Positions 1,630 through 29,475 of a DNA stretch of 64,000 nucleotides are shown here, one piece after another (within the stretch, counting starts at the first letter, position 1; the number at the start of each line of letters is the position of its first letter). Below the pieces are notes generated by a model. That model ran no database searches and had not been told where the DNA came from. It saw nothing but the letters and a program-made list of their open reading frames with translations. The DNA is from an uncultured Candidatus Cloacimonadota bacterium (GTDB taxonomy: Bacteria > Cloacimonadota > Cloacimonadia > Cloacimonadales > TCS61): contig CAZRXY010000105.1 in the NCBI GenBank assembly GCA_964604155.1, forward strand, positions 3,123 through 67,122. The letters run 5' to 3'. Position numbers and translations under genes: made by a program.

Positions 1630-4600
1630 CTATTTGAGCATTATCATCTTGCGGGTCTCGTTCAAGTCACCTATCTTCACTTTGTAGAAATATACTCCGC
1701 TTGATACTGAGCGATTACTGTTGTCAGTTCCGCTCCATTCAAATGAATAATTTCCACTTGCTACTGTCTCATTAACCAGGCTCTTGACCAATTGTCCCTT
1801 AACGTTATAAATATTGATGCTTACTGGTGTGTTATTATCTTTTACTGCCAGCTTGATCATTGTTGTGGGATTGAAAGGATTCGGATAATTGCCAAATACT
1901 GCATTAGCTGCTATCACTCCACTTTCCAGATCCTCGACGTTGTAAGTAGTCTCTGTGCTGATGCCGTTGCAGGTCGTGATCAGGACAAATTCGCCACTGT
2001 CTTCCACAAGTTCATAAGGAATACGAAGGAATTCGCCACTGATTGCTTCTGCATTTGCCAATGCTACTGCATTGCCATTTACGGCATGAAGATAATCTAT
2101 CTCGGTTTCTTTGAAATTGAGCAATTCACTATCCGTGCTCACACTGAAACCATAAAGCTCTCCAGTTGCACTAAAGACAAGTTCTCCATTCTCTGAAGTC
2201 ATAACAACTTCTGCTGATGGTATGGCAGTTCTGGCTTCCACTGGGAATACATCTATCATACCCACAGCATACTGCAGAATAAGAGCTGCATCATAAGCTT
2301 CCGGCGTGCCATTGCCATCCACATCTCCGGCAATTAGTTCCCAGGTCCAAGGCAGGGGTGCCCCCACTGGATTCATTCCAACCGTGTATTGAAGTACATT
2401 AGCTGCATCAAAAGCATCTATCACTTCATCTCCAGTTACATCACCATAAAGATATGCCTGACCCACCGTCAAAGTTACCGGCACTACTACATCCGGGTTG
2501 TAAAGATCGTTACTCTCGATCACTATCTCACCCATCATCACATCTCCATCTATCAGCCCAGCGGCATCAAAATGAAGGTTATGAGCATCTGCTCCACCAC
2601 CTACGGGGATCAAACCACTCACAGCCATACTGCCGTCAAAGGTTACCCAGGGATTGATTGGAATGCTGTAATCCACTACAAGATATGGAGGATTAGCCTG
2701 ATTCCAGCCGTCTATCAAGGTGTAATATGAAGTTCCCATATCACGCGGAGAAGCTCCTACGGCAAACCAACCCTGAGAAAGTGCTGCTGCCAGATCCGCA
2801 TTAGCCGTGCCCACCAGATTATAAGCATGCCATCCCGGAGCAAAAGTACCTGTTTCATTATTAAATGAATAGGCTGATGCCTGGGGATTACCGGCTATTA
2901 TATGTGCCTGAAGTGCTGCTGCACCAGTAGTTAATGGATCAAGTAAACATGGAGTAAGCGACCAGTATGGCCAGTTTGTGTCATTCACATATACATTGCA
3001 TTCAATGCTGTTGATTATTGCTCCAGCAGGAATACCGGATACGTCAAACATCATCCAGCCGTTCTCTACATCAATTGCTCTCACATTGCTGTTGTCGGTG
3101 AAGTCGGTTGCATCCACTGATCCAGTCCAGTAAGCCTCATCTTGAGGATAAACTTCTACAATTGCTCTACCCTCATAATAGAATATCTCTGCAGAATAAT
3201 CCAGCTCCAGATCACCATCATTTCCAATAGTTAATGGGAAATCTGCTGTGCCGTCTGCTGCTACTATCACGTCAAACGCTTCTGGATTTACAGTTATATC
3301 CGGTGTAGGAATACTTCCGGTGATCTCCAGATCTGCTGCTACCACTGCACTCACCTCGCCATCGCCAAATACGATATTGGCATAATATGTCAGTCCAGGA
3401 AGCTCGATAGCGTTAAAGGTTGCTGTGATATCTACACTGGCACCCGGTGCCAGTGTACCATTATGTGGTGCTATGCTTAACCAGGTCTCTGTCGGGCATA
3501 ATTCATACATCGTTACTATATAGCTCGATTGATTCATCACACCGATCACAAATAAACCATCAGCATAGTCTGCTGAAGTAAAGGCTCCACCGGCTATATC
3601 TTCTCCGGGTACTCCATGATCCTCAAGTACATCATGGATAACGCCCGTCTCTGCACCAGTCTCTATATTATACTGAGCTATTACGCAGCCACTGCCACCC
3701 TGGCTGTAACCATACAGGTATGGTCCGCCTTCTGTGATATTGTCATAAGCCAATCCGTAGAAATCACCCCAGGTTCCGCAAGGGAAGCTGTCAAGTATAT
3801 TGCCCGTACGACTTACCAAGGTCACATCTGTGCTCCAGTCATTTACCCAGAAAGCATCATTATCGTCATCATAGGCAATTGCACGTACTGCTACCGGACT
3901 GATGATTGTCTCTACCAAAGTCTGGCTGCTAAAATCCATCTTCCAAAGATTCGTTCCGGCAGCTCCACCATAGAAATACTGACCGTCGTATGCCAGATCC
4001 CTGAGACCCGTTACACCCGGTATAGTAAAGGTTTCTATGAAGTTGCCATCTATGTCAAACTTGTTGATATCGGCTGAATTCCATGCTGCTGTATAGAAGT
4101 ATGTGCCGTCAAATTCGATGCCTGCCTGGCTGACTTGTGTTGTGGTAAAGGTTCCCACTATGTCCCAGATATCACGGGTCTGAGGTACTTCAAAGATTTG
4201 AGCTTCCGGGCTCAATTCTGCCCCAGCTCCCACCTTCTCTGCAGGCCTCGGAGTCATCTCACCCACATTAAAGCTGCCACGCGTCTGGATTGAACCATTC
4301 CAATAGAAATTACCATCTCCATTATTGGTCAAAGTAATATTGTGATCTGAGGTTAAACCATAATCCAATACCTCACTCAAAGAAGTAGGATTAACCGTAA
4401 CATCGGCTGTCCCCAGTTCTACTACTACGTGATTAGTCTCTGGAGATTCACCTTCATCATATACTGCTGTCACATAGTATTCATAAATCCCTGCTGCCAG
4501 ACCCAGATCGTCATACATCGTCTCGCCTACAGTTGCTATCACTTCATCATCGCGATATACGTTATACGTGCCTGTAAATTCACGTACTGTCTCACCAACA

Positions 4601-7600
4601 CCGGCTGAACCTAATTCCAGTCTCATATCCGTCTGAATCGGCTCCGGATTCCACGGCTGTGGACGAGCTAATACTACGTTCTCACCACGCTCTCCGGCTA
4701 TGCCACCCCAGATATTCCAGTTGTAATCCAAACCAAATCCACTCAGCGGATCCCAGGTAAGTCCATTATCCATAGTGATCATATCACCAAATCCGGCTAC
4801 GGCAGGTCCTGCATCACATCCGGCTGGATATTCTAAAGCTGCATGAGTTACTTCATAACCAATCCATAACTCTGTGCTGCCGTCAATCAGTACCGGAGTG
4901 TTAAATACGAAATTGTTCCAGTCAAGAGCAACAGGCGTAACTGTCTGCTGCAATAATACGTTAGCTGCATTAGGCCCACTCCATACATACAGAGTCATGG
5001 CACTTGGCAGATCATTTATATAAACCGTTACATTAGACAGCAATTCACCGGCAAATGGTGCCAGTTCGGCAGGAGTAAATCTCGCTGCCACGCTGAATGT
5101 GCCACCGTCTGTCAAGCCAATAGCATCAAAATTGATCATGTCATCCCAGTGCAGAATATCTGTCGGCGGGAAAAATGGTTCTGTCCATTCCAATCCCACA
5201 TTGTAGCCATCCACTGTTGCCGTCAGGTCCGTGGCAGGATTCATTATTATATCAAGACCAAAATCCTGTACTGTTACTACGTCTTCCAGAATTCCTACTC
5301 CGATAGCTAACTGACCTGTATATCCGGGAGCATTACACAATACATCATAAGTGCCCACTAATACTTCAGGAATAGAGTAATATCCGGCCGCATCTGTCGT
5401 GCCCTGATAATTTCCACAGATTACCGAGGCTCCAAATATCGGATCACCTGTAAAGTTATCGGTTACTGTCCCTTCCAGTCCACCAAATGCTATCGGACCC
5501 ACGATAAAGGGAAATTCACCATAGGTAGTATAATCATTGGATGCCCATTCTGCCAGAATCACGCCTTGCTTGCTTACTACACCGGCTATTCCACCATCTC
5601 CAAATGTATCCCAGCAATCCACTGAATAGTTGCCATCAGGCAGATCCTCAGATACTATCACCGTCTCACCACCTGTAGTAAATGTCCAGTCTGTACCCCA
5701 AACATAGCTGTTTGTCTGATAATCCCAAACATTCCAGGTTGCTTCAGTTGGCCAGGAATCTACCGTCATCTCAAAGACTACACCTGTCAAAGGAACAAGT
5801 GCCACATCCAATTGCACGTTCACATCTGCCAGCACTTCCACTCCCGTTTCTGTCCACGGATTGTAGCCTGTTGCAGAAAAACTTACATCATAAAATCCTG
5901 TCTGTAATCCTGTTATCGCATACCAGCCCGTGGCATCTGTTACTACCTGAACGCCACCTGCTGCCACATTAACTCCATTAATGCCGTTGCCTGTCTCACT
6001 ATCGGTCACGAAGCCTTCGATCCCACCAAATTCCGGCGGATCCATTACGTCAAAATGAACTTCAAAATAACCTGCTACGTTGTAACTGCTATAAGCTTCC
6101 ATTGCCACATAGTAGGTTCCAGGAGATAATATTACCACATAGCTTCCGTCATCCTGACCAATCCAGGGAGCCATCGAGCTGCCAGAAGGCCAGGTGCTGC
6201 AGCCATCATCATCATAAGCTACACGCGTGTAAGCATCATTATAAAGATTCATATATGTGTCAAACTCACTGCCACAACCATGAAGTTCTGCAGTTGCACC
6301 ATTAGGTAAATCTAATTGATAATAAACATCCTTACCTGAGGTTCCGCCTTCAAGTCCTGCTATTGTACTGTAATCCGTATAAGGCTCAATATCGCCACTC
6401 ATGAAGTACGGGAAAGCATCCACTATTATAGGATCCTCTATCGTGTCTCCAGTAGTATTAAAAACTTCCAGATCAAAATCTACCGTGGTGTTTACTCCCT
6501 CTTGCACTATCACGCCCGATACCAAGCCATTAAAGAATCCCGGTGCCGTTGCAAGTACATCGTAGGTGCCAGTCTCCACTACCATTTCGTAAGAACCATT
6601 CATATCGGTCGTGGTCGTGTATTCTCCGGCAGTTACTACCGCTCCTCCAATCGGAGCTCCATCGCCGTAAACTAATCCTTCGATCCCGCCAAATTCCGGT
6701 GGCTCATTAGCTTCTATAGCAATATCAAATGGTGTGAAATATGGTGTCGGCCATGTGGAAATAACTATATAATAGGTATTACCCATAGTCAATATCACTT
6801 CTTGCAGCATTGGATTACCAGCCCAACCGGTCGCCATAGCTACACATACAGCGTTAGGATCATCTACAAATCCCTGAACTACAAAAAGACCTGTATAGTT
6901 TAGTGTATTGGTCAAAGTAATATCTAAAGACATGTTTTCTGTTGGTGTAAATGAAAATACAAAATCATCGCCATTCATGTAATAGCTGCCACAAGCCATT
7001 GTGCCGTCATAATCATTGCCAAAACCCTCTGTAGTCATTCCTGTCCGATAAAAAGGTATGCTGTCAATGTAATAAGGATCAGCACAACTTGTTCCTGCTG
7101 TATCAAATACATCCAAATAAAAATCCACTGTCGCTGTCTGATCAAATACTACGGTTACTTCATCAGTCCCATTAAAATAACCATAATGTGATGCCGTAAC
7201 GGTAAATGTGCCTTCAAGCAGTACTTCTATTTCATAAAAGCCGGAAGCATCAGTTGTTCCAATAAAGTTTCCAACTGAAACCGTTGCACCTTCTAATGGA
7301 TCCAGAGTTACACTGTCATATACATGTCCATTCACGAACCCGCTCGGCATCACACCGTCATGATTCAAGATGATATTGGCAATTATCGCCTGCACTCCGG
7401 CTGCTCTCGATAAGGTCTTGCCTGTCTTGGCTGCTTCCATCTCGTTGTATTCTTCGCGATAGGTTCCCGTGGGAGGATCTGCAGGATCGGGATTAGTACT
7501 ATCACTATAGAAATAAATTGAGCGGTTCAAGTCCGTCGCCGTTCCGTAAAATTCATCCATACTACTGGTATAACCCGGAGTATTGGCATCAAAGGCGATC

Positions 7601-8001
7601 ACCAGATTATCCACTCCGTTATAAGCAAACTGTGTCTGAAGGTCTACTGTCACCCAGTGATCAAAATCCATCACCGTGAAACCACCAGCCCATACCTGCG
7701 TAAGCTCTTCGATCGGTATCCAGCTCGGATAATCCCCAAATTCGTCCTGTGTTGTGTGTCCCATATAAACCACACAATCCTCTACCCAGGCACTGTTTCC
7801 ATTATAGTGCCAGGCTACGTTCTCAATGTTCACTGCCCCACCTATCTCTTCCGCAGTATAGATCACCTGCGAATAGGTGTAGCCATAAAATGGTTCCATC
7901 GGTAAATGGGTGTCCACTAATGACCCATTACCAATCGGAATCGGGTCTGCTATCAATAATCCGATGCAGACCAGCATTAATGCAATAAGCAACTTTTTCA
8001 T
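1630..8001 (-). CDS. Giant (2123 aa) secreted adhesin-like protein with four CarboxypepD_reg-like modules alternating with PPC-like modules, a beta-propeller-like region, a dockerin-like module and a T9SS-type C-terminal sorting domain
   Basis: Track ORF 1630-8166. The likely true start is the internal ATG at 7999-8001 (MKKLLIALMLVCIGLLIADP signal peptide, AGGAGA RBS). Repeated (PPEF)GG(I/L)EG.V.D...G.P..GA.V......TTD..G.Y motifs. Dockerin-like GDVTGDEVIDAFDAANVLQY...GDVDGNGTPEAYDAALILQYAVG. The C-terminus FGNYPNPFNPTT...GVYFYKV...KMIMLK matches the T9SS type A / FlgD-Ig-like tail pattern. Confidence 0.9.
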   Translation of the reverse strand: MKKLLIALMLVCIGLLIADPIPIGNGSLVDTHLPMEPFYGYTYSQVIYTAEEIGGAVNIENVAWHYNGNSAWVEDCVVYMGHTTQDEFGDYPSWIPIEELTQVWAGGFTVMDFDHWVTVDLQTQFAYNGVDNLVIAFDANTPGYTSSMDEFYGTATDLNRSIYFYSDSTNPDPADPPTGTYREEYNEMEAAKTGKTLSRAAGVQAIIANIILNHDGVMPSGFVNGHVYDSVTLDPLEGATVSVGNFIGTTDASGFYEIEVLLEGTFTVTASHYGYFNGTDEVTVVFDQTATVDFYLDVFDTAGTSCADPYYIDSIPFYRTGMTTEGFGNDYDGTMACGSYYMNGDDFVFSFTPTENMSLDITLTNTLNYTGLFVVQGFVDDPNAVCVAMATGWAGNPMLQEVILTMGNTYYIVISTWPTPYFTPFDIAIEANEPPEFGGIEGLVYGDGAPIGGAVVTAGEYTTTTDMNGSYEMVVETGTYDVLATAPGFFNGLVSGVIVQEGVNTTVDFDLEVFNTTGDTIEDPIIVDAFPYFMSGDIEPYTDYSTIAGLEGGTSGKDVYYQLDLPNGATAELHGCGSEFDTYMNLYNDAYTRVAYDDDGCSTWPSGSSMAPWIGQDDGSYVVILSPGTYYVAMEAYSSYNVAGYFEVHFDVMDPPEFGGIEGFVTDSETGNGINGVNVAAGGVQVVTDATGWYAITGLQTGFYDVSFSATGYNPWTETGVEVLADVNVQLDVALVPLTGVVFEMTVDSWPTEATWNVWDYQTNSYVWGTDWTFTTGGETVIVSEDLPDGNYSVDCWDTFGDGGIAGVVSKQGVILAEWASNDYTTYGEFPFIVGPIAFGGLEGTVTDNFTGDPIFGASVICGNYQGTTDAAGYYSIPEVLVGTYDVLCNAPGYTGQLAIGVGILEDVVTVQDFGLDIIMNPATDLTATVDGYNVGLEWTEPFFPPTDILHWDDMINFDAIGLTDGGTFSVAARFTPAELAPFAGELLSNVTVYINDLPSAMTLYVWSGPNAANVLLQQTVTPVALDWNNFVFNTPVLIDGSTELWIGYEVTHAALEYPAGCDAGPAVAGFGDMITMDNGLTWDPLSGFGLDYNWNIWGGIAGERGENVVLARPQPWNPEPIQTDMRLELGSAGVGETVREFTGTYNVYRDDEVIATVGETMYDDLGLAAGIYEYYVTAVYDEGESPETNHVVVELGTADVTVNPTSLSEVLDYGLTSDHNITLTNNGDGNFYWNGSIQTRGSFNVGEMTPRPAEKVGAGAELSPEAQIFEVPQTRDIWDIVGTFTTTQVSQAGIEFDGTYFYTAAWNSADINKFDIDGNFIETFTIPGVTGLRDLAYDGQYFYGGAAGTNLWKMDFSSQTLVETIISPVAVRAIAYDDDNDAFWVNDWSTDVTLVSRTGNILDSFPCGTWGDFYGLAYDNITEGGPYLYGYSQGGSGCVIAQYNIETGAETGVIHDVLEDHGVPGEDIAGGAFTSADYADGLFVIGVMNQSSYIVTMYELCPTETWLSIAPHNGTLAPGASVDITATFNAIELPGLTYYANIVFGDGEVSAVVAADLEITGSIPTPDITVNPEAFDVIVAADGTADFPLTIGNDGDLELDYSAEIFYYEGRAIVEVYPQDEAYWTGSVDATDFTDNSNVRAIDVENGWMMFDVSGIPAGAIINSIECNVYVNDTNWPYWSLTPCLLDPLTTGAAALQAHIIAGNPQASAYSFNNETGTFAPGWHAYNLVGTANADLAAALSQGWFAVGASPRDMGTSYYTLIDGWNQANPPYLVVDYSIPINPWVTFDGSMAVSGLIPVGGGADAHNLHFDAAGLIDGDVMMGEIVIESNDLYNPDVVVPVTLTVGQAYLYGDVTGDEVIDAFDAANVLQYTVGMNPVGAPLPWTWELIAGDVDGNGTPEAYDAALILQYAVGMIDVFPVEARTAIPSAEVVMTSENGELVFSATGELYGFSVSTDSELLNFKETEIDYLHAVNGNAVALANAEAISGEFLRIPYELVEDSGEFVLITTCNGISTETTYNVEDLESGVIAANAVFGNYPNPFNPTTMIKLAVKDNNTPVSINIYNVKGQLVKSLVNETVASGNYSFEWSGTDNSNRSVSSGVYFYKVKIGDLNETRKMIMLK

Positions 8002-8201
8002 AAAGTCTCTCCTTTGAATTTTAAAAATTAACTTCTTAATCAAATCGTTTTCCTTTTCCGAGGATGCGAAACGGCTGCCCACATCCATCCTCCCTGCGAT
8101 AGTGGCGGTTTGCTCTTGTCTTTCTCTTCGACTCTTCTTAATTTGGATATTCTCTTTCATTATCAATCTTCTTCTTGCTTACTCCTCATGGCTTTTTCCC
8201 A

Positions 8202-8405
8202 TTAATCCCTAAATCCAAACGGCTCCTCGCCGTCATCAATCCATATGACACTTTTTCCCTCTTGAAAAAAATCTGTCAAATAATTATTCTCTCTCTCTCC
8301 AATATTTTTATGCAACGATGCTAAACTGAATTGTTCGGTAAATGCTAAGGAAAAAAACACTTCCCTGCTAAACACTGCTTCTCTGATCTTCCTAGTTAAC
8401 ATCAT
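8202..8405 (-). CDS. Possible small hypothetical protein (67 aa)
   Basis: An ORF on the same strand as its neighbours, with a balanced amino-acid composition. It has no clear RBS and no recognisable motif. Confidence 0.25.
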   Translation of the reverse strand: MMLTRKIREAVFSREVFFSLAFTEQFSLASLHKNIGERENNYLTDFFQEGKSVIWIDDGEEPFGFRD

Positions 8406-8589
8406 AATTACCCTGTCCCTAATACTTTATGACTTTTTTCCAGTCTCATCCCGCCGGCAACCAATCCACCTGTTATCTCTCATGCCGCCGCGCCAGCTCT
8501 TTCTCAGATTAATTCACTGTGTTTTCTCTTCTCCCAATAGAACTTCTTACCCTCACAATAACTCTGACCCAAATGTGAACTTTACCTTT

Positions 8590-9660
8590 TTATCTGTCAA
8601 TAACTTTTCCTTGTAAAGTTAATCTATTTTTTACCCGCGTCGGACAATTAGTTGTCACTGTGATATAACGTATAAAATCTCCCGTTGACCTGGAAAGATT
8701 GATCTTCAATACTATCTCACCTTCATTTCCAGGACTCACTTTCGCATCATAATCCAATATCGTCACAAAACTTGCCATCCTGATATCTCTTATATGAAGA
8801 TCGCTGCCACCTGTATTCTCAAATCGGAACCGGCTGATTACTTCCTCATCCCCAGAACTCTCACCAAAATCTGCGACTGTAGAAAAAAACCTGATCTGGG
8901 GTGCTCGTGACTTCTCCTCATTAGTCCACGCTCCAAAATCCTCCTCCTGATTGTAGGTGATTATTAATCCACCCATCGTGACCGTGGGATTATTATTGTC
9001 ATAAAATTTCACCCGCTCCCGGTTAAAACCATACTTCCCCCCTTTATCTCCCTTCACTTTCGCATAGATAACTGCCGTCTCACCCGGCAATAAAGGATTA
9101 TCGCTGATACTCAATTCCACATTCTCTATCTCCATAAAATCCTCTATTACAAGATCCATCTCCCTCTCACCCGAGTTTAATATCAGTATCGAATCAATTC
9201 TTGTCTCCGTATCCAAGATGTACTCAAAATTAAATTCCGCCCTGTTCAACCGCAATTCACCCACTTTCTTACGCAATTTCTGCGGATCAGGAAGGATGAA
9301 ACCACGCACCCGCAACGTTACTTCCGAAGGTTTGCCACTCGTCTGAACCCTCACCGACTTGCGGAATACCTTGCTCCTGTTTGACGGATCAAAAACCAGT
9401 ACTACATAACCCCGCTCTCCAGGCATGATCTCTCCAGTTGACCAACTGGATGTCGTGCAGCCTCACGAAGCATGGACATCGATCAATTTCAGCGGCTCAT
9501 CTCCCGTATTACTGAACTCAAAACGATATTCCACTTCCCCATCCTTCTCGTATATCTCCCCAAAATCATACTCCAGCAAGTCCGGCGTAAATTCCGCTAC
9601 ACCACATAAAATCAGACAGTAAAACAGAATACTTAATACTAACAGTATCTTCAATTTCAT
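8590..9660 (-). CDS. Secreted DUF1573-type protein (356 codons) read through one in-frame TGA at 9463-9465; candidate selenoprotein, alternatively a nonsense-disrupted pseudogene
   Basis: Track ORFs 9463-9660 and 8590-9426 share one frame. Joined, the sequence reads ...YDFGEIYEKDGEVEYRFEFSNTGDEPLKLIDVHAS-TGA-GCTTSSWSTGEIMPGERGYVVLVFDP, matching the DUF1573 F.F..NtG..PL.I..v..SCGCT box with TGA at the first Cys. Signal peptide MKLKILLVLSILFYCLILCG. GAGGTG RBS upstream of 9660. Confidence 0.6.
9434..9449 (-). promoter_or_regulatory. SECIS-like hairpin CCAGUU-GGUC-AACUGG downstream of the in-frame UGA
   Basis: A perfect 6-bp stem with a 4-nt GGUC loop. The loop occupies mRNA positions 23-26, counting the U of UGA as 1. 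The E. coli fdhF SECIS has a GGUC loop at positions 22-25. Confidence 0.5.
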
Positions 9661-9694
9661 CTCGCAATCACCTCGCTATTTTTTTGCCGCAATC

Positions 9695-10477
9695 CTAAGA
9701 TCCGGCTAATCTTAACATCCTCGCAAAAGCACTCATAGACGTTCCTCGGTAATGCAATCGATGACGCGGATCAAAGGATGTGCCGTCCAGATAACGCAAT
9801 TCCAGATGCAAATGCGAATCCTTGCCCGAACGCGTCAAATTGCCCGTCACTCCAGTTAATCCCACTACCGTGTCCATAAATACCTCGTCTCCCGCTTCCA
9901 CATAAACCTCATTCAAATGCACATATATGGATATCAAACCCTCTGGATATAATATCTCCACTATCTTGCCATACTCTACCTGCGTGCTGTCACGCCCCCC
10001 ATCCGCACGAGTATATTCCACCCATTCCATATGATTCGGATTGTGGCTCACCCGCGTGACCACTCCATAATAACCCAATGGATAAACCTCGCTGTTCTCA
10101 GGAACAAATAAATCTATCCCCTCGTGAATCCGAGGAATACTGGAACTACCCCTCTTGCTGCCATAATGATCCTGAAAACGATTCCTCACATACTCATTTA
10201 TCAAATCCTGAAACGCCCGGCTTCCTTCTCCATCACGACCATCCCAAAATGGTGACTTGTATTCCGTAAACCTGTCCGCAAATTCCGGACTTATCAGCAG
10301 CTTCTGTTCCGATATCTTCATCGGATGATATACTACCAGCGAATCTCCACTGAAACCCAAAATCAGCAAATTACCCAACACACCCTCAAGCCGACGTATC
10401 CGCAATTGATCAGATACGATGATTCCCAGCAATATTATTATCACTATAAGCACCAGTAACACAGTTCGTGAACCCAT
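9695..10477 (-). CDS. M23 family metallopeptidase, membrane-anchored
   Basis: N-terminal TM helix, plus the HEGIDLF and SHLHLELR motifs (HxxxD and HxH of M23/LytM). Confidence 0.85.
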   Translation of the reverse strand: MGSRTVLLVLIVIIILLGIIVSDQLRIRRLEGVLGNLLILGFSGDSLVVYHPMKISEQKLLISPEFADRFTEYKSPFWDGRDGEGSRAFQDLINEYVRNRFQDHYGSKRGSSSIPRIHEGIDLFVPENSEVYPLGYYGVVTRVSHNPNHMEWVEYTRADGGRDSTQVEYGKIVEILYPEGLISIYVHLNEVYVEAGDEVFMDTVVGLTGVTGNLTRSGKDSHLHLELRYLDGTSFDPRHRLHYRGTSMSAFARMLRLAGS

Positions 10478-15573: not shown

Positions 15574-16596
15574 TTATTTGTAGTATTTTTTGGTGAAGCC
15601 GGTTATCCAGGTGCCTGGGGGTAAAAATGGTTTTTGGATGAGAGCGGTGAGGAATCCGCAGCCATAGGCGATAACCTGGGTAAAAAGTGTGATCACAGAG
15701 AGCAATCCCACGCGAGCGGAGCGGTTACGGACGGCGGACTGGCAGCCGGCGAATATTGCGATTGTGAGGGCTAATACGGCTTCGATAGAGAGGATTTGAC
15801 GGGCGGTTTGCCAGAAGACGGCACCTGAGAGGGTCAATATTAGAATCACCAGCAGAATGGCGGGAAGAGCGTGAACCGGTTTTAGCATCTGTGGATCTAT
15901 ATTACCCAGATTTATGCGGGTGACGCCCCAGTTAAAAATCTGTTTGAAAAATCGTTTCAGGTTAGTTCTACGTTTATGATAAACAATGATATCAGGGAAG
16001 AAAACGATTTTGAAACCGGCTTTATATATGCGGTTAGAATATTCCATATCTTGTCCGTGTCTCAGGTCGTTCATACCGCCGATCTGGTTATATATACGTT
16101 TTTTTATACCCATATTAAAGCTGCGTGGGTAATATTTTGCGATGCTTTTTTTTGCGCCTCTTGTGCCGCCAGTGCCGATAAAAGACGTCATAGAGTAATT
16201 AACTGCTTTCAGGAATGGTGGGAAATCGTCTTTTTGTGTATCGGGACCTCCGAAGGCATCGAAGTCACAATTATCGAGTTTATCTTTCAGTTTTTCTATA
16301 TAATCGGATGGAACGGTGCAATCTGAATCAATGAACACAAAGAGGTCGCCTTTTGCGTGAGCCATTCCCAGATTTCGGGCGGCGCCTGGTCCTTGATTTT
16401 TTTGTTTGAGTAATTGGAGGCTGAGTTTATTTTTAAAATTTTCATAAACGGAGGGCAGATGGTCGGAAGAGCCGTCATCCACAATAACGATCTCGAAGCC
16501 GGATATTTTTCTTTGATCATTAAAAGAGGACAAGAACTCAGCCATCTCATCCGCCCTGTTAAATACGGGTACAATTATAGAAATCAGGTTATTCAT
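15574..16596 (-). CDS. Family 2 glycosyltransferase with C-terminal transmembrane segments
   Basis: IIVPVFNR...IVIVDDGSSD...FIDSDC...GQDMEYSNR, followed by three or four hydrophobic helices. Confidence 0.85.
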   Translation of the reverse strand: MNNLISIIVPVFNRADEMAEFLSSFNDQRKISGFEIVIVDDGSSDHLPSVYENFKNKLSLQLLKQKNQGPGAARNLGMAHAKGDLFVFIDSDCTVPSDYIEKLKDKLDNCDFDAFGGPDTQKDDFPPFLKAVNYSMTSFIGTGGTRGAKKSIAKYYPRSFNMGIKKRIYNQIGGMNDLRHGQDMEYSNRIYKAGFKIVFFPDIIVYHKRRTNLKRFFKQIFNWGVTRINLGNIDPQMLKPVHALPAILLVILILTLSGAVFWQTARQILSIEAVLALTIAIFAGCQSAVRNRSARVGLLSVITLFTQVIAYGCGFLTALIQKPFLPPGTWITGFTKKYYK

Positions 16597-16597
16597 T

Positions 16598-19054
16598 TCA
16601 AGTAATTTTTTGTTTTTTATGCTTTCTTATGTAATCAGCGGCGAGGGCAAGCAGGAGCAGCCAGGCGATACCATGAGCAATATAGGAGATTTTAAGAAAT
16701 CTGAGATAGGTATCCGGCTGGAATTCGAAGCGTACGGTATGTTCTCCGGGAGTATCGATATAGATAGAGCGGAGGACGTGGTTGGTTTTATAGATATTTT
16801 TTTCACTGCCATCCACGAAGCATTTCCAGCCGGCGGGATAGAAGATTTCTGAAGCGATCATAAGGGCTGGTTTATCATTAGTGACCTTATATTCAATAAA
16901 GTTATATGAAGCTTCCACCACATCGATACTGCCTGTTATTATATCGGGTTTGATATCAAAATCCGGTTGTTCTTCGAGAATAGCGGTGCTATAGGCATCG
17001 AATTCTGGATCATTAATGGCATTTAAGCGTGCGATGCGCTCAGGGATCACCAGATAATCGTAGGCGAACCAGGCAGGTCTGGCATTGAATTTTGTTCTAT
17101 AGGTGAAGAGGTTTTTTGCACTATCGTGGTAGTAGAGCGAGAGTTTATCTTCGGGCAGAGCTTGAGAGCTGACGAGATATTTTGTATTCAGCATTTTAAG
17201 TACGTTCCAGTTAATGGGGAATTGAGGATTATCGCCTTCATAGAGGCAGGATTCTATAATGTCCTGGTAAATGCGCAATTTTGCGGCATTATAGCCGCCA
17301 ATTGAATTATGATAATAAGAATAATCATTGGAGTTAAAGGGATTTTCGGTGATTGGGAAAACGCGAAAATAGCTTTCATCCTGGAGTAGGATTTTATTTG
17401 TATTGGTGATCCTGAAGTGGTTGTTTTCGAGGAGTTGTGGATTGCTGAGTTCACCTTCTGCTTTTTTAACATAAGGTATCTGGTCTGAGAGCATCAGTCC
17501 CAGCAATAGGGCAATAAAGATGAGAGGTTTGATTTTTTTTGCGAGACAGGCAAAAATGATGAGGCAGGTGGCGAGTGCATACAGGATGAGCCTGATGCCG
17601 TCTGACTGCATCATATCGAGTCTGGCGGCTGCGATGATCTTAGCGGAATCGCTGCCGTAGCGAGAGACATCGTCACTTTTTATCATGTTAAATGAAGAAC
17701 CAAAGAGGTATGGAATAAGCCCTGCGATGATCAGAATTGCGGCGACAGTGAAAATGGTTTTTTTTAGCTTGGTATCAGATTTGAGGATAGTATCTAAACC
17801 GAATCCTGCCAGGATTGCTGAGAGCATGAAAATCACGAGCTGCATCATTGCGGGTGCACGGAATTTATTGAAGGCGGGAACGTAATGAAAGAATAAATTA
17901 TAGAAAGCGGTGAAATGCCTGCCGAATGCCAGCAGAAGCGAAAGCAGAAAGAGAGCTGAAAGCAGTTTTATAATGGGCTTCTTCCAATTAGCGATCAATC
18001 CCACCAGGGCAAGAAATGCCATAATAATCCCAATATAATCATAAGTCTGGGTAAAAGGCATATGCCCCCAATAGCCCGGGATCATTTTATCTTTTAATTG
18101 CGGGACTTTAGAGCCGGTGTATAATTCCTGCGAGGTGCCGCCAAAGAACCGAGGCATAGTCCAATTAAAAACTGCCAGCGGGTGCATAGACCAGCTTGTG
18201 GCATAGCTGCTATCCAGACCTGTAGAGCCTGTTTCTCCGGTACCGCCTCGGATAGAATATGGAGTATATTCGCCAGCCACAAAGACCGGCTGGGCGACCA
18301 TACCGATAATGAGCAGGCAGGCGGGGATAAGTAGGAGGAATTTTTTCAGGGCAATATCTGCCTTTCCGGTACGGAGGAGATTAATGAGATAAAAGAGCCC
18401 GAGGAATATGAGTATGAGAATCTGATAAAAGATCACCTGGTAATGATGGGTCCGAATCTGGACGGCAAAACTGAAAATGAATCCGATGAGCCAGAGGAGA
18501 TTTTTTTTATTGATAAAATTTAGGAAGAAAAAGGTGACCAGAGGCATATACATCACGGGTCTGAATTTCTGGAAATGCCCGATAGACAGGATAGACATAT
18601 AATGCGGGATGAGAATAAAGCCCAGGGCACAGAAGGCAGAGGCATACCAGCTAAGCTTAAAGAATCTGAGCAGATAAAACATACCGATGAAGCCAAGGAG
18701 ATAGAGCCAGATATTCAGATACAAAATCTCAGCGAGATGGAAATGGATGATCGTATCAAAATTAAAAGCCTTAGCACCATTACGGTGATAGGTAGGCATA
18801 CCGGAAAACACTTTGGAATTCCAGAGGACAATTTCTCCAGTTTCCTGCTCATATTCCTTTAACTGATGAGAGGCACCTTTTGAGCCAATAACATCGACAC
18901 CCCCGGGTCGCAAGCCTTTGAATGCCATAGGATACAGCACCGTAAGCAGCATGATAAAAACGGCAGCAAAAAGAACAAGCTGCCACCACCAGGCTTGCGG
19001 GTCTTTGAGCTCGCTGCTTCGCTTTAACTCGGGAATATGTTTTTTCTTAGTCAT
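16598..19054 (-). CDS. YfhO-like large polytopic membrane protein (GT-C-type extracytoplasmic glycosyltransferase candidate)
   Basis: 818 aa with about 12 N-terminal TM helices, a soluble C-terminal domain and a terminal TM helix. This architecture and size are typical of the YfhO family. It starts 1 nt after the GT2 gene. Confidence 0.65.
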   Translation of the reverse strand: MTKKKHIPELKRSSELKDPQAWWWQLVLFAAVFIMLLTVLYPMAFKGLRPGGVDVIGSKGASHQLKEYEQETGEIVLWNSKVFSGMPTYHRNGAKAFNFDTIIHFHLAEILYLNIWLYLLGFIGMFYLLRFFKLSWYASAFCALGFILIPHYMSILSIGHFQKFRPVMYMPLVTFFFLNFINKKNLLWLIGFIFSFAVQIRTHHYQVIFYQILILIFLGLFYLINLLRTGKADIALKKFLLLIPACLLIIGMVAQPVFVAGEYTPYSIRGGTGETGSTGLDSSYATSWSMHPLAVFNWTMPRFFGGTSQELYTGSKVPQLKDKMIPGYWGHMPFTQTYDYIGIIMAFLALVGLIANWKKPIIKLLSALFLLSLLLAFGRHFTAFYNLFFHYVPAFNKFRAPAMMQLVIFMLSAILAGFGLDTILKSDTKLKKTIFTVAAILIIAGLIPYLFGSSFNMIKSDDVSRYGSDSAKIIAAARLDMMQSDGIRLILYALATCLIIFACLAKKIKPLIFIALLLGLMLSDQIPYVKKAEGELSNPQLLENNHFRITNTNKILLQDESYFRVFPITENPFNSNDYSYYHNSIGGYNAAKLRIYQDIIESCLYEGDNPQFPINWNVLKMLNTKYLVSSQALPEDKLSLYYHDSAKNLFTYRTKFNARPAWFAYDYLVIPERIARLNAINDPEFDAYSTAILEEQPDFDIKPDIITGSIDVVEASYNFIEYKVTNDKPALMIASEIFYPAGWKCFVDGSEKNIYKTNHVLRSIYIDTPGEHTVRFEFQPDTYLRFLKISYIAHGIAWLLLLALAADYIRKHKKQKIT

Positions 19055-20557
19055 CTATTCACCTCCGATTTCTTTTTTAAACAGCCTGATAATATTTTCA
19101 GGCTTTGACCACTTGGCAAGAGACTGTCTGGCTCTTTTGATCTCGTGCTTTTCAAAAAATCCCAGTAAATAGAGGAGCACCGGGTAGAGAATGAGGATAA
19201 TCACATCAGTGATCATCCTGAGAATCACCTGCCACTCCGGGATAACAAGCCAGATATAAATCAATCCGATGCCAACTAAAAACGCTTTCAAATATTTGAC
19301 AACCTCATAATTTGAATAACCATATTTTTTATTTATGGCAAGGCAGACGAGTACGGCGACAGCCTGCGAGGCGGCAGTAGTGAGAGCAGCGCCCAGAGAA
19401 CCCAGCCGGGGAATCACCAGAAAATTTAAAATTAGATTCATCACGCCAGCACCTATCGCTATCAAAGATATAAGATAAGATTTTTTCATCTTTGCCATTG
19501 GCATAAAGAGCATGGAACGCATCCCGAAAAGGATAGCACTTGCCACCAGATATGGCACGATGTGCAGAGAATCATAATAATCCGCATTGGCAGTGAGAAA
19601 TTTTATCACCGTCTTACTGATAATACTGAGTAATATCCCGCTGTAGATAGCAATAAAGGTAAAATAAGTGATAGATTTATCAAAAAAATGGTCATGTTTT
19701 TCATTATTGATCTCATTGTAGTATTTGATATTATAGGTTCTCATAAAGGAGCGGACTATCAGCAGCTTTATAAGGCTGGCAACTTTATAGGCAAGAGAAT
19801 ATTGCCCTACATCGGAAAGTGAATAGTAATGCTTGAGAATAAAGCGATCACTAAGCGTCATCACTAGAGCAAAAAGTGCCGAAATTGCCAGAGGCAGAGA
19901 ATATCTGATCATTTTTTTGAGAAGTTGTAATTCTATAACGAGCTTTATTTCTCGGGAAAGATAGGGGATCAGCAGCAAAAATACAAGCATATTACCACAA
20001 ATCTGTCCCAGAAACACGCCCTCAATGCTCATATTTAGCTGCATGATAAAGAATACCGTGGTGATTAAGACGGTGCCAAGATTTATCAGCACATATCTGG
20101 TTTGCCTCATCACCTGCTGCTTGATCTGCATGAGATAAATGACCCTGAGCACTATCACCCGCAGCAGAATATTAATGAGGAATATACCAATGACGGAGGT
20201 GGAGACAGCTATATCAAAAATCTGGAGTGAATACATGTCTATCAGGAAAAAACCGATAAGAAGACAGATAAACGTGGAGATTATAGAAAATAAAAGCGTA
20301 GTGAAAAACAAGGATTTTTGACGGTCTTTGCCTTCATTATCCCAGTACCAGCGATTGAAACCGTTCTCTATGCCCAGTGAGGAAGTGGCTATTATCACGT
20401 CTGCCAATATCTCAAAAAGAGCCAGTAAGCCATAAACTTCTATAGAAAAATTACGCGCATAGACCGGTAAAAGAATAAAGCCGATCAATTTAACGGCAAT
20501 ATTTCCGATGCCGTAATAAAAAGTCTGCTTTGCTGCACTTCTGATCCTCTCTATCAC
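19055..20557 (-). CDS. Wzx/MOP-superfamily oligosaccharide flippase
   Basis: 500 aa with about 14 TM helices. N-terminus FYYGIGNIAVKLIGFILLPVYARNFSIEVYG. GTG start with an AGGAGG about 14 nt upstream. Confidence 0.75.
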   Translation of the reverse strand: MIERIRSAAKQTFYYGIGNIAVKLIGFILLPVYARNFSIEVYGLLALFEILADVIIATSSLGIENGFNRWYWDNEGKDRQKSLFFTTLLFSIISTFICLLIGFFLIDMYSLQIFDIAVSTSVIGIFLINILLRVIVLRVIYLMQIKQQVMRQTRYVLINLGTVLITTVFFIMQLNMSIEGVFLGQICGNMLVFLLLIPYLSREIKLVIELQLLKKMIRYSLPLAISALFALVMTLSDRFILKHYYSLSDVGQYSLAYKVASLIKLLIVRSFMRTYNIKYYNEINNEKHDHFFDKSITYFTFIAIYSGILLSIISKTVIKFLTANADYYDSLHIVPYLVASAILFGMRSMLFMPMAKMKKSYLISLIAIGAGVMNLILNFLVIPRLGSLGAALTTAASQAVAVLVCLAINKKYGYSNYEVVKYLKAFLVGIGLIYIWLVIPEWQVILRMITDVIILILYPVLLYLLGFFEKHEIKRARQSLAKWSKPENIIRLFKKEIGGE

Positions 20558-20626
20558 CAGGGCTTTATAACCTCCTGTAATCTTTCAGTCCGACAATCTT
20601 TCTTATTTTGGTAGATCATGGAATTC

Positions 20627-20666
20627 TGTCAATTTATATAACAAGCTGGCATACTCCCGGAATTTA
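20627..20666 (-). promoter_or_regulatory. TTGACA box (20627-20632) plus conserved upstream motif TAAATTCCGGGAGTATGCCAG (20646-20666) in front of the flippase operon
   Basis: One of four copies of the motif; see also 30926-30966, 47161-47201 and 39159-39201. Confidence 0.45.
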
Positions 20667-20680
20667 TTTGTTTGTTTGGG

Positions 20681-20740
20681 ATATTGAACTTATGAAGTTA
20701 TTGGTCGTCACCATTGCGAAGGTCGGGCGACCATTCGCAA
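20681..20740. repeat. 42-bp repeat (20681-20722, 41/42 identical to 30982-31023) running into the palindrome TTGCGAAGGTC-GGGC-GACCATTCGCAA (20714-20740)
   Basis: Direct comparison of the two regions by eye. Confidence 0.8.
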
Positions 20741-20884
20741 GTGTGGCAGATTCAGGTTTAAGCTATATATATTAATAATATACGGCGTCACTTTTGTGCC
20801 ACTCTATGTTTGATTAGTGTAACATGATAATTTTGTGTGTTTTATGTGTAGCAATTAGGTGGGAGAGGGAACGAATTTATTTTT

Positions 20885-20916
20885 GCCACGGATTTCACGG
20901 TTTTTACACGGATTCA
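20885..20916 (+). repeat. Three direct CACGG(A/T)TT units: GCCACGGATTTCACGGTTTTTACACGGATTCA
   Basis: CACGG at 20887, 20896 and 20907. An inverted copy, AATCCGTGGC, lies at 21014-21023. Confidence 0.6.
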
Positions 20917-20936
20917 ATTAAAAAATATTCATCGTC

Positions 20937-20991
20937 GGGGGTTAAAACCCCATTTTTTCTAGTTTTGGTATCCACGAGTTGAAACTCGTGG
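20937..20991. repeat. Hairpin pair: GGGGGTTAAAACCCC and CCACGAGTT-GA-AACTCGTGG
   Basis: Perfect palindromes at 20937-20951 and 20972-20991. Confidence 0.75.
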
Positions 20992-21060
20992 CTATGCATA
21001 TATAACAGGTTGTAATCCGTGGCTTTCATAATATAATAGAACTCTTGGCTATGCATTATG
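20983..21060 (+). repeat. Three degenerate tandem ~26-31-bp units ending in (C/T)(G/T)TGGCT(A/T)T(G/C)CAT
   Basis: AACTCGTGGCTATGCATATATAACAGGTTGT / AATCCGTGGCTTTCATAATATAATAG / AACTCTTGGCTATGCATTATG. Two similar units occur at 31414-31450. Confidence 0.55.
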
Positions 21061-21121
21061 GACTGTCTCCTATCACTGAAAAGTGTACCAGATAGATGTA
21101 GTTTCTTGTTTTGCAGTGAAT

Positions 21122-21191
21122 AGCCCTGAGCTTTAGCTCGGGGTTTTTATGCACTCTCTCAGTCGGGATTTATCCCAGGGTTATTTTTGAT
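21122..21191 (+). repeat. ~70-bp interspersed element, copy 1. It starts with the terminator-like hairpin AGCCCTGAGCT-TT-AGCTCGGGGTTTTT and ends with GGGATTTATCCCAGGG
   Basis: Aligns by eye with 31292-31362 and 34064-34127. All three copies are in the same orientation. Confidence 0.7.
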
Positions 21192-21297
21192 TAATGGAAG
21201 TCAGGTCGGTGGTTGAGGGGATAATTTGTTGGGATGTGATGCGGATCGAAGGGTTTTCAATTTTATTTCTTCTGCTTCAGGGGCAGGGGGTAATAAG

Positions 21298-23052
21298 TTA
21301 TTCTATGGCATAGATGAAGAAGCGGTAGTAATTGAAGGGGTTTTTTTCTCGGTAAACTTCTTTTAGTCCTTTTTCTGAGGCGTTAACAATTTTTGCGGTA
21401 GAGAAGAGATAATCAATTTTGAGCTCTTTGAGCAAAGTTGTATTCAGGTCACAGGTAATGGACTTGAATTTTCTTTTCAAGTATTCCTGGTCAAGCATTT
21501 CAATGAATATTTCGTCATCGAAGAGGTATAATTGGGAGCCCCATTTATTCATATAGATTTTCAGTCTGGGGTTTTTATTCATTTCATTTTCGAGAATATT
21601 CAGGAAGGTTTGCTTGAGATGGAGAGGGTAGATGGGGCAATAGGCGCCCAGGGTTTTGTATCCGTTAAAATTTGCTACAGCGGGTTGGAATCCCACGCAG
21701 CCTATGCGAGTATCTTCTTTGGAAAATCCTGGTTCGTTTTCACTGAGGAAATTAGTGATATCATCGAACTGTTTTTTTGATACTACCTGATAGTATGTGG
21801 GTTTTTCTGTCCAGGTTTTATAGCTTGAATTGCAGTAGTTGATAGTGATTTGAGCGAATAAAACAATTAAGGCAATGCTTAGAATAGTTTTTTTGCCGTG
21901 GTATTTACTGTAAAAGAATGTGATAGCAATGGCGGTGAGTAAATACCAGACTGGAGGGTTCAAGAAGAATAAGCGGGAGTAATCAAAGCCGAATTTCAGA
22001 TTCGTGTAGAATTCGTTAACCGGTTCGAAGCGGTAAATAGAGAACATCAGAGCACTGAGAATGATGAAAGCAATCAATTGGATCGACAATTTGCGCAAGA
22101 AGAAAGAGCGGTTACGAAAGATAAGGGCAGCGGATATGACACTTACAGGCAGCAAAAGGTATTGATGATAAGATGGAGCATGCCTGTGAGAAGTGACAAA
22201 ATAGTTAAGGAACAGATCATTCCAGGCATCCGCCAGATTTTTTGACAATAACTGAATTTCTGATCTATTTGTGGGTATTTTGTAAACGAAGTTGATCAGA
22301 AAGAAAGAATAATTAGTGAGGACATAAATCACTGTCATCAGGATAATAGGTGGAATTAATCTTTTATATTTTAATTTGCTGATCATCCTGACCAGGATCA
22401 GAAGACCGAGAATAGCCATCACAAAAATTCCGGTAAGGAAGAACCCTGAATAAGTGATATAAATCAGCAGGAAGAGATATGAGAGAAAGACCTGCTTTTT
22501 ATGGAAAATATTTAGAAGAATCACAGTTAGCAGAGGCAAACCTGAGACAGATAAACCGCCCTGCTGCCAGAATGGGAGGTAGATATATGCAATTGAGATC
22601 AGAGCTGGAAACAAGCGTGGTAACCCTTTCATAATATAGAGTTTTAGCAGCAGGTAGAAACCGATAAAAGCCAGCAACCTATAGAAGAATTCATTTAGCA
22701 CATATCCCCTGAAAAACCCCAGTAGCCAGAAAATTTTGGGCAGAGAAGGGACAGCGAGTCTGAAAACCGGCTCCATCCCGGGCAGATAGAATTCCTCCAT
22801 ATTATCATTAAGGAAAAAATGCCCTTGGAACTTGCCATCGAAATGACCCAGATAGCTCATTTGATCGAGGTTATCGAATTGAGGAATAGAAACATTTTCA
22901 CCCTTGATGAAATAGGGCAGGAAATAGAAAATGAATAATGATATTATCAGCGTGAGGACAATTTTTGGATTATCGAGTAGTTTCCAGAATGCAGTTCCAG
23001 AAAACTCTTCACAGCTATTTTCGGCAATAATTTTGTTCTTTTTTTTGCTCAT
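21298..23052 (-). CDS. Large polytopic membrane protein of the glycan operon, possibly DUF6044-like; candidate periplasmic glycosyl/acyl-sugar transferase or polymerase
   Basis: 584 aa with more than 10 TM helices plus a soluble C-terminal domain. The N-terminal GENVSIPQFDNLDQ motif is reminiscent of DUF6044. Its start overlaps the stop codon of the upstream aminotransferase gene by 1 nt at 23052. Confidence 0.5.
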   Translation of the reverse strand: MSKKKNKIIAENSCEEFSGTAFWKLLDNPKIVLTLIISLFIFYFLPYFIKGENVSIPQFDNLDQMSYLGHFDGKFQGHFFLNDNMEEFYLPGMEPVFRLAVPSLPKIFWLLGFFRGYVLNEFFYRLLAFIGFYLLLKLYIMKGLPRLFPALISIAYIYLPFWQQGGLSVSGLPLLTVILLNIFHKKQVFLSYLFLLIYITYSGFFLTGIFVMAILGLLILVRMISKLKYKRLIPPIILMTVIYVLTNYSFFLINFVYKIPTNRSEIQLLSKNLADAWNDLFLNYFVTSHRHAPSYHQYLLLPVSVISAALIFRNRSFFLRKLSIQLIAFIILSALMFSIYRFEPVNEFYTNLKFGFDYSRLFFLNPPVWYLLTAIAITFFYSKYHGKKTILSIALIVLFAQITINYCNSSYKTWTEKPTYYQVVSKKQFDDITNFLSENEPGFSKEDTRIGCVGFQPAVANFNGYKTLGAYCPIYPLHLKQTFLNILENEMNKNPRLKIYMNKWGSQLYLFDDEIFIEMLDQEYLKRKFKSITCDLNTTLLKELKIDYLFSTAKIVNASEKGLKEVYREKNPFNYYRFFIYAIE

Positions 23053-24182
23053 TACTTTTTTTCTGATATAAAGGCTTTAGTCAGTTCGGCACAGCATTTT
23101 TCGACATCATCGGAACTTAAGTTATAATGCATTGGTAATCTTAAGATAGTATCAGCCACCATTTCTGCAACCGGGAGCTTCAGGTTCTCATATAGTCTAT
23201 TCCAATAGGGAGCTTTATGCAGTGGCAGGTAATGGAAAGCAGATTGAATATCCATCTGGTGCAATTTATTGATAATATTTTTGCGGTGCGTTTCGCTTTC
23301 CGTTAATATGGAAAAGCAGTGACCGTTTGGTTGGCAGCTTTTTTCAACAACAGGGAGAGACCGTTTTGGCAGGTTCTCTTTAAGTTTTTTGATATAGCAA
23401 TAAAAAAGTTTTTGCCGTTTAAGATTAACATTTTTCAATTCCAGAAGCTGGGCATAAAGAAATGCAGCCTGTAATTCACTTAGATAATAATTTGAACCAT
23501 TTTTCCACCACGACCAGTAATCAATTTTCCCATCGTTAAAATCTTTTCTATCTGTGCCACGGTCTCTAATCTTTTGTGCTCTTTCCATGAAATGCGGTGA
23601 ATTAATGATAAGAGCACCACCTTCGCCACAATGGATATTTTTTGTTTGATGAAAACTGGTGATTGCCAGGTCTCCAAAAGAGCCTAATGGCAGATCACGA
23701 TAATAAGCTGCAATACCATGGGCATTATCTTCGATCAGGATTAATGAGTGTTTTCTGCATATTTCTTTGATCACGGCGATATTATCTGAGATTCCGGCAT
23801 AATTGACAGTAACAACCGCTTTTGATTTTGGGGAGATGAGTTTTTCCAGTTTATGTTCATCCAAATTCCTGGTTGATGCTTTGATATCGCACCAGATTAG
23901 CCTTGCTTTTTGTCGTGCAAATGCGGAGGCAGTTCCTACGTGGGCAAAAGGTGGGAGTATTATTTCATCGCCCGGATTGATATCCAGCAATTCTGAAGCA
24001 ATACAAAGAGCTGAGCTGCCCGAAGAAGTTAACAGGACTTTTTTTGCCTGGAATAAATCAGCAAGGGTCTTTTCGCACTTTTGGGAAAATACTCCATCTC
24101 CACAGAAATAACCATTTTTGAATACCTGATCAAGGAATATTTTTTCTGTGCCGAGTAAAAGAGGTTCATTGAAAATAATCAT
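23052..24182 (-). CDS. DegT/DnrJ/EryC1 (WecE-like) PLP-dependent sugar aminotransferase
   Basis: TSSGSSAL...DNAHG...SFHQTKNIHCGEGGALI, including the PLP lysine motif. Confidence 0.9.
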   Translation of the reverse strand: MIIFNEPLLLGTEKIFLDQVFKNGYFCGDGVFSQKCEKTLADLFQAKKVLLTSSGSSALCIASELLDINPGDEIILPPFAHVGTASAFARQKARLIWCDIKASTRNLDEHKLEKLISPKSKAVVTVNYAGISDNIAVIKEICRKHSLILIEDNAHGIAAYYRDLPLGSFGDLAITSFHQTKNIHCGEGGALIINSPHFMERAQKIRDRGTDRKDFNDGKIDYWSWWKNGSNYYLSELQAAFLYAQLLELKNVNLKRQKLFYCYIKKLKENLPKRSLPVVEKSCQPNGHCFSILTESETHRKNIINKLHQMDIQSAFHYLPLHKAPYWNRLYENLKLPVAEMVADTILRLPMHYNLSSDDVEKCCAELTKAFISEKK

Positions 24183-28160: not shown

Positions 28161-28169
28161 TTATTCTCC

Positions 28170-29468: not shown

Positions 29469-29475
29469 ATTTTTT

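Follow-up and report, generated by a model that had tools for sequence, protein, structure and literature searches.

The window analysed here is a stretch of 64,000 nucleotides (nt) from an uncultured Candidatus Cloacimonadota bacterium (GenBank assembly GCA_964604155.1, contig CAZRXY010000105.1, positions 3,123 to 67,122), and the element in question is a TGA-interrupted gene of the DUF1573 family on its minus strand. The open reading frame (ORF) list and the translation reveal a single minus-strand frame that runs from ATG 9660-9658 to TAA 8592-8590, with one internal TGA at 9465-9463. Gene callers cut this gene (8590..9660) into ORFs of 65 and 278 amino acids (9660-9466 and 9426-8590, minus strand), which lie in a common frame with the TGA between them, and 12 sense codons (GGC TGC ACG ACA TCC AGT TGG TCA ACT GGA GAG ATC) lead from the TGA to ATG 9426. 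The junction peptide is ...FEFSNTGDEPLKLIDVHAS-[UGA]-GCTTSSWSTGEIMPGERGYVVLVFDP, and the residues just before the UGA are LIDVHAS. In the alignment, the interrupting codon falls in the column where Cys homologues invariably carry the first Cys of SCGCT. A preliminary description of this DNA, made from the sequence alone, had reported two ORFs in one frame separated by one TGA and 12 sense codons and had placed the TGA at the first Cys of a DUF1573 SCGCT box; the coordinates, the translation, and the alignment agree with it. The interval 9660-8590 is read, with a probability of about 0.88, as one gene for a predicted exported selenoprotein of the OS_HP2/DUF1573 family with three immunoglobulin-like (Ig) domains and selenocysteine (Sec) at UGA 9465-9463. 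The predicted complete gene (8590..9660, minus strand) has 356 codons, including Sec66, and would encode a precursor of about 39 kDa. The predicted Sec66 codon (UGA, 9463..9465, minus strand) is the first position of a U-G-C motif (TGA GGC TGC, 9465-9457), and the tryptic peptide predicted from the translation to span it is LIDVHAS-U-GCTTSSWSTGEIMPGER.

The UGA was written as Cys in the read-through protein for profile searches. Pfam DUF1573 (PF07610) matched the protein in two stretches (E = 2.3e-43, 146.6 bits), the better of which covers amino acids 30-121 and spans the UGA. A score of 100.3 bits, just above the curated cutoff of 100, was obtained with NF041425 of NCBIfam ("OS_HP2 family (seleno)protein"). 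A further match was to the HYDIN/VesB-like Ig family, and membership in OS_HP2/DUF1573 is a direct observation. OS_HP2 was named in a study of Olavius symbionts (PMC1976440, Table 2), appears in the Global Ocean Sampling study as "OS_HP2, pfam07610, UxC" with 2 Sec and 354 Cys sequences (PMC2398784), and is given as "DUF1573, UGC" in reviews of 2022 and 2026 (PMC9312934 and PMC13188914). Publications of 2007, 2008, 2022, and 2026 thus already cover both the family and where Sec lies in its CGC box, and since the family has been in the literature since 2007, the present result is an annotation fix rather than a discovery and does not represent a new kind of selenoprotein. The suggestion in the preliminary description that the gene is a candidate selenoprotein had therefore been anticipated in print; for this locus it is supported by the family match, by the alternation of TGA and Cys among relatives, and by the frozen codons of a hairpin behind the UGA. 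Zhang and Gladyshev (2007) required that a UGA recur in two or more different sequences, and here it is conserved in 13 distinct full-length orthologues and 4 divergent Sec-type genes.

The 11 closest database homologues (46-61% identity), one of which is named Candidatus Cloacimonetes, are ORFs of 253-278 amino acids that contain the post-UGA part only, and the more distant homologues (~25-33% identity) are full length with SCGCT. A total of 22 orthologous loci was assembled from 17 loci for the close homologues and 6 from a metagenome scan, whose peptide patterns were placed far from the hairpin, minus 1 repeated contig. A single in-frame TGA was found at the same codon in all 22 loci, which come from independent samples, and every one of them is split in the same way into a 63-65-amino-acid fragment and a longer ORF. 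Thirteen distinct full-length orthologous genes, with pairwise nucleotide identities of 54-99.9%, were used for a codon-by-codon analysis. The most conserved peptide of the protein, GCTTPSWSTGE, falls in the "gap" between the called ORFs. In addition, ATG 9426 of the window is Leu in the orthologues, which indicates that an independent start of the downstream ORF is not conserved.

A scan of genome contigs with a single protein as the query gave no matches. An alignment-based scan of genome contigs used a pattern that contained Cys and therefore, by design, returned only Cys forms, which served as the control set. At the Sec column, all 80 of these Cys-type loci, from Bacteroidota, have TGC or TGT. 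The palindrome and hairpin are absent from all 80, including those with the peptide PSWS or PSWT, for which the Cys homologues use varied codons (e.g., CCAAGCTGGTCG, CCGAGTTGGTCT, and CCTAGTTGGTCG). The column is thus observed to alternate between TGA with the hairpin, in Cloacimonadota-type orthologues and paralogues, and TGC or TGT without it, in the 80 Bacteroidota loci. This comparison had been suggested in the preliminary description, which held that a Cys codon followed by the same palindrome would speak against Sec; no orthologue combines the two.

The predicted selenocysteine insertion sequence (SECIS) hairpin, UCCAGUU-GGUC-AACUGGA, lies at 9433..9450 on the minus strand and is part of the minimum free energy (MFE) fold. 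Its core 6-bp stem, CCAGUU/AACUGG (9449-9444/9439-9434), starts 13 nt past the UGA, and the GGUC apical loop (9443-9440) takes up nt 23-26, with the U of UGA counted as 1. In the window sequence, a U16-A33 pair lengthens the stem to 7 bp (9450-9433), and the hairpin alone has a folding energy of -7.2 kcal/mol. The stem-loop, its 13-nt spacing, and its loop position had been noted before, and both the sequence and the MFE fold bear them out.

The codons of the hairpin are conserved beyond what the amino acids demand. Among the 13 distinct orthologues, 44 columns have an invariant amino acid of 4- or 6-fold degeneracy, and one codon is used throughout in 3 of the 3 such columns within the hairpin versus 0 of the 41 elsewhere (Fisher p = 7.6e-5). 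The frozen codons are Ser72 AGT, Ser74 TCA, and Thr75 ACT. At codon 71, the amino acid is Ser, Pro, or Thr, yet the third-position C, which is paired in the stem, is kept. The codons right before the hairpin drift (GGC/GGT/GGA/GGG, TGC/TGT, and ACA/ACG/ACT). Across 15 distinct Sec-type sequences, CCAGTTGGTCAACTG is unchanged in 14, and the 15th (L107) has a compensatory change from A-U to G-C; the GGUC loop is invariant in all 15. In the alignment of these sequences, the 6-bp helix is 96.7% paired, compared with 0-48% in slid registers; four of its pairs never vary, a fifth is the one with the compensatory change, and three sequences lack the outermost pair. Judged from these synonymous sites, the hairpin is under selection as RNA.

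A wider search, in which the 65-amino-acid N-terminal fragment was compared with 1.8 billion representative proteins, returned fragments of 37-70 amino acids in some 17 clusters at 50% identity, and each fragment ends right before the Sec column. The DNA was examined for 4 of these clusters (L105, L106, L107, and L108), and the TGA was also present in 4 more divergent Sec-type genes (L106a, L106b, L107, and L108). Two of these are tandem DUF1573 genes on one metagenomic contig (L106:10-1452 and L106:1501-2721), each with the TGA and CCAGTTGGTCAACTG; L106a has a fused C-terminal rhodanese domain, and L106b has a rhodanese-like stretch at its end. The hairpin of L107 is CCGGTTGGTCAACCGG, with the stem CCGGUU/AACCGG (L107:433-492). 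Here, Ser AGT is replaced by Gly GGT and Thr ACT by its synonym ACC, which turns pair A19-U30 into G19-C30, the only compensatory change seen. L108, with the TGA and the same CCAGTTGGTCAACTG hairpin, is a 3.5-kb contig (GCA_016933655.1, contig JAFGAN010000023.1) of a metagenome-assembled genome (MAG) labelled Dehalococcoidales. In it, a GEVED/CarboxypepD_reg giant protein is encoded after the Sec-type DUF1573 gene, an arrangement like that of Cloacimonadota; the contig may have been binned wrongly, or the locus may be more widely distributed. The interval L105:554-860 was considered as a truncated gene and rejected; this contig is chimeric, with a DUF1573 N-terminal fragment joined to a GroEL-like coding sequence in another frame, and is an assembly artefact.

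Several observations weigh against a selenoprotein at this locus. The hairpin is not thermodynamically exceptional, as the 76-nt context has a folding z-score of -0.42 relative to shuffled sequences, and the folding energies of the 45-nt segments are alike in Cys homologues (-9.2 ± 2.8 kcal/mol) and TGA forms (-10.5 ± 1.5 kcal/mol). Hairpin stability was dropped as evidence, because neither the z-score nor the 45-nt energies separate Sec from Cys forms. In addition, 34 of the 2,650 TGA trinucleotides in the window (1.3%) precede a comparable hairpin, meaning a perfect stem of 6 bp or more whose loop contains G and whose distance from the TGA is permissible. The hairpin alone is thus no more than expected by chance, and the evidence must therefore come from relatives. 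The signal that rises above chance is, on comparison of the sequences, the coincidence of the hairpin with the Cys column together with its conservation across relatives. Covariation amounts to a single compensatory event, a level reached by 28 of 500 shuffles; most of the weight is accordingly carried by the synonymous sites that stay frozen and by the finding that Cys forms have no hairpin. The bulged U17 needed by E. coli SelB is not present in the hairpin, and general bacterial SECIS models are not known to demand it. According to PMC8659212, this bulge is an E. coli-specific feature. Neither a gathering-threshold nor an E-value search of the window matched a SECIS family in Rfam; the only match, to mir-425 with E = 5, was dismissed as meaningless. 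The score for NF041425 clears its cutoff marginally. We found no experimental evidence for selenium in any OS_HP2/DUF1573 member, and literature on DUF1573 function yielded incidental mentions only and no experiment on any DUF1573 protein. Finally, no selA, selB, selD, or tRNA-Sec was found in the 64-kb window by ARAGORN, which reported no tRNA at all, or by an NCBIfam scan of the 10 ORFs of selA/selB/selD size. We therefore infer the Sec competence of the source genome, solely from the phylum-level literature, in which a "Cloacimonetes type tRNA-Sec" with an atypical 7+5 acceptor/T arm has been described (PMC5330540). The window is placed in this phylum by its release factor 1 gene (prfA), the product of which shares 66-81% identity with proteins that bear the name Candidatus Cloacimonetes or Cloacimonadota.

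If the locus encodes a selenoprotein, UGA 9465-9463 would be decoded as selenocysteine by standard bacterial Sec insertion. The hairpin would act as a bacterial SECIS, the GGUC loop of which would recruit SelB-GTP-Sec-tRNA(Sec) when the ribosome is at the UGA, about 20 nt upstream, and the SelB complex would be placed at the ribosomal A site in competition with release factor 2. The same signals could also serve a recoding in which SECIS and SelB take part and a residue other than Sec is inserted, either Cys through a tRNA-Sec-like tRNA or Trp or Cys by near-cognate read-through; the full-length product would then contain no selenium. Transfer RNAs that resemble tRNA-Sec and have Cys identity have been proposed in some bacteria. 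The evidence from the sequences speaks for selection on read-through and on the hairpin, not for selenium itself, and the atypical 7+5 form of tRNA-Sec in Cloacimonadota (PMC5330540) lends this alternative some further weight. It is nevertheless very unlikely, because the residue aligned with the UGA is specifically Cys, as in the classical Sec/Cys pairing, because a plain TGY codon as in the 80 homologues would be a simpler way to obtain Cys, and because the family is curated as a selenoprotein (NF041425).

The TGA might instead be a genuine stop, in a split or decaying gene or between two genes of 65 and 278 amino acids; the hairpin would then have a local regulatory role or arise incidentally from the SWST codons. 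The gene callers and the public annotation treat the locus in this way, GGAGAG lies 3 nt upstream of ATG 9426, and the hairpin is thermodynamically unexceptional. Yet the TGA and both of its flanks are under amino-acid constraint in 22 of 22 orthologous loci, down to 54% nucleotide identity; the candidate downstream start is not conserved, the best-conserved peptide sits between the two called ORFs, and a stop here would halve a beta-sandwich domain. Coding for SWST does not account for the hairpin either, since its codons are synonymously frozen while other codons drift, and since PSWS is written with varied codons in the Cys homologues. A genuine stop is thus also very unlikely. A promoter/terminator scan around the gene, which was otherwise uninformative, placed no terminator after the UGA. 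As for a TGA reassigned to sense throughout the genome (code 4 or 25) or produced by an assembly or sequencing error, nothing beyond the bare in-frame TGA speaks in its favor. The stop codons of the 47 large ORFs in the window are TGA in 19, TAA in 19, and TAG in 9, and a second TGA-split gene was not found in the window. The TGAs at 42319-42321 and 24179-24181, cited earlier as true stops, were confirmed as such. Since TGA closes 19 of the 47 genes, it is not reassigned in this genome. The same TGA occurs in more than 20 independently assembled contigs (ENA, JGI, NCBI, and Logan) and is therefore not a sequencing error, so that the assembly error envisaged in the preliminary description as a possible refutation received no support. 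Reassignment and error are both effectively refuted.

Read as a selenoprotein, the product would be exported to the cell envelope. An N-terminal signal peptide, MKLKILLVLSILFYCLILCGVA|EF, is predicted at 9595..9660 (minus strand) from a basic n-region, a hydrophobic core, and a G-V-A motif recognized by eye, and the orthologues and Cys homologues have equivalent N termini. Three Ig-like beta-sandwich domains are expected by homology. U-G-C belongs to the first, a DUF1573 (HYDIN/VesB-like Ig) domain of amino acids 30-121 (9298..9573, minus strand; Pfam/NCBIfam), and a second DUF1573-like Ig domain, with approximate limits, spans about amino acids 255-350 (8611..8898, minus strand; the second Pfam stretch). 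In the Cloacimonadota orthologues, this second domain has no CGC box and reads MASFVT (IRDIRMASFVTILDYD) where Bacteroidota homologues have a second SCGCT, so that the motif is retained in the Sec-bearing N-terminal domain only. In the AlphaFold2 model of a Cys homologue (P0016; predicted local distance difference test score, 92.9), a 4-residue turn that joins strand 57-62 to strand 67-71 contains C64-G65-C66. A fold search with this model returned generic HYDIN/ASH Ig-like domains and an uncharacterized Porphyromonas gingivalis protein (2qsv), and no catalytic analogue.

By this model, the first Ig-like domain would present U-G-C in a tight turn that joins two of its beta-strands, and Sec and the Cys two residues on could alternate between a selenol/thiol pair and a selenenylsulfide. 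That the CGC box of DUF1573 can carry Sec has been in the literature since 2007-2008, and the box is hence probably redox active. DUF1573-rhodanese fusions are present in Cys-type proteins (P0024, P0041, P0043, P0045, P0046, and P0049) and in a Sec-type one (L106a), which points to a chemistry of thiol redox or sulfur transfer in the envelope, and the likeliest role of U-G-C would accordingly lie in thiol/selenol redox chemistry or sulfur transfer there.

The upstream neighbor is an M23 peptidase gene (9695..10477, minus strand; Pfam PF01551), which is also found next to the orthologous genes of L001, L003, L004, L008, L011, L012, and L014. The downstream neighbor (1630..8166, minus strand) encodes a protein of 2,178 amino acids with CarboxypepD_reg repeats and a C-terminal sorting domain of the type IX secretion system (T9SS; Pfam PF13620, PF13860, and PF18962), and the same gene type lies downstream in L001-L003 and L108. 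The order of M23 peptidase, DUF1573 selenoprotein, and giant (>2,000 amino acids) T9SS protein (1630-10477, minus strand) is kept across orthologous loci (L001-L004, L008, L011, L012, L014, and L108). This block is divergent from the adjoining rplM-rpsI-rpsB-tsf-pyrH-frr genes and, together with rpsB-rpsI-rplM, is syntenic with contigs of Cloacimonetes MAGs. In view of this gene order, the selenoprotein and the T9SS cargo may be functionally linked. A more specific reading, in which the U-G-C turn is a dedicated extracytoplasmic selenenylsulfide relay working with rhodanese-type sulfurtransferases and coupled in Cloacimonadota to the M23 peptidase and the giant T9SS protein, for example, in the maturation or redox control of surface cargo, is speculative and rather unlikely.

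Two other regions of the window were noted. A long same-strand cluster at 15574-30829 (minus strand), only sampled during the search for Sec machinery, contains glycosyltransferases, including an EpsD-like one (15574-16596), and an acyl-CoA ligase-like gene (28170-29468), and looks like an exopolysaccharide or surface-glycan locus. The interval 58624-63940 (minus strand) comprises a fused FtcD-FchA gene (glutamate formimidoyltransferase/cyclohydrolase; 58624-60348), two ORFs of about 417 amino acids, and prfA (62873-63940), and is probably a histidine or formimino-glutamate catabolic cluster.

The value of the selenoprotein reading lies first in annotation, as the gene systematically appears in MAGs of Cloacimonadota either as a pair of ORFs or, truncated, under the name "DUF1573 domain-containing protein." When the Sec codon is recognized, the protein of 356 amino acids is restored, and the predicted selenoproteome of the phylum gains a member. 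The ortholog set is also a clean natural example of a synonymously frozen core of a predicted SECIS with a GGUC loop as in fdhF, and, in a phylum with an atypical tRNA-Sec, it could serve studies of SelB-SECIS specificity. Were the relay to prove real, it would be the first function of a DUF1573 protein and the first catalytic chalcogen center described on an ASH/HYDIN-type Ig fold.

Like the SECIS of E. coli fdhF, the hairpin described here lies within the ORF close to the 3' side of the UGA and has an identical GGUC apical loop. The fdhF loop had been placed at nt 22-25 in the preliminary description, and this is upheld by the fdhF sequence TGACACGGCCCATCGGTTGCAGGTCTGCACC, matched at fdhF in 5,419 E. 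coli genomes; the published numbering of U17, G23, and U24 (PMC8659212) is consistent with it. The loop here, at nt 23-26, is thus offset by +1 nt, and the spacing from the UGA to the stem is 13 nt, compared with 11 nt for the minimal fdhF element. The fdhF SECIS has the bulged U17, whereas the hairpin here is a perfect stem of 6-7 bp without a bulge, and, unlike fdhF, it has no evident conserved lower stem. The cognate tRNA-Sec also differs, being of the atypical 7+5 type in the phylum Cloacimonadota (PMC5330540).

The gene shares with the OS_HP2 family the same domain, a U-G-C motif in which predicted Sec replaces the first Cys of SCGCT, the predominance of Cys homologues, and a stem-loop directly downstream of the UGA. 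The OS_HP2 members first described are from deltaproteobacterial symbionts of worms and from ocean metagenomes, whereas the genes described here form a Cloacimonadota orthologue group. In contrast to those members, this group has a three-domain architecture in which the second DUF1573 domain has no CGC box, and a conserved synteny with an M23 peptidase gene and a giant T9SS cargo gene.

Vicinal and CXC redox motifs are known from the CGC shuttle disulfide of Erv2-type sulfhydryl oxidases and the GCUG selenenylsulfide of mammalian thioredoxin reductase. Unlike in these enzymes, where the motif sits in the flexible tail of a flavoenzyme, the motif here would lie in a turn of an Ig-like beta-sandwich, and no partner oxidoreductase is known for it, save for the occasional rhodanese fusion. 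What the predicted U-G-C turn may have in common with them, as a resemblance only, is a pair of chalcogen residues separated by at most one residue, which could close a small strained ring and act as a redox shuttle.

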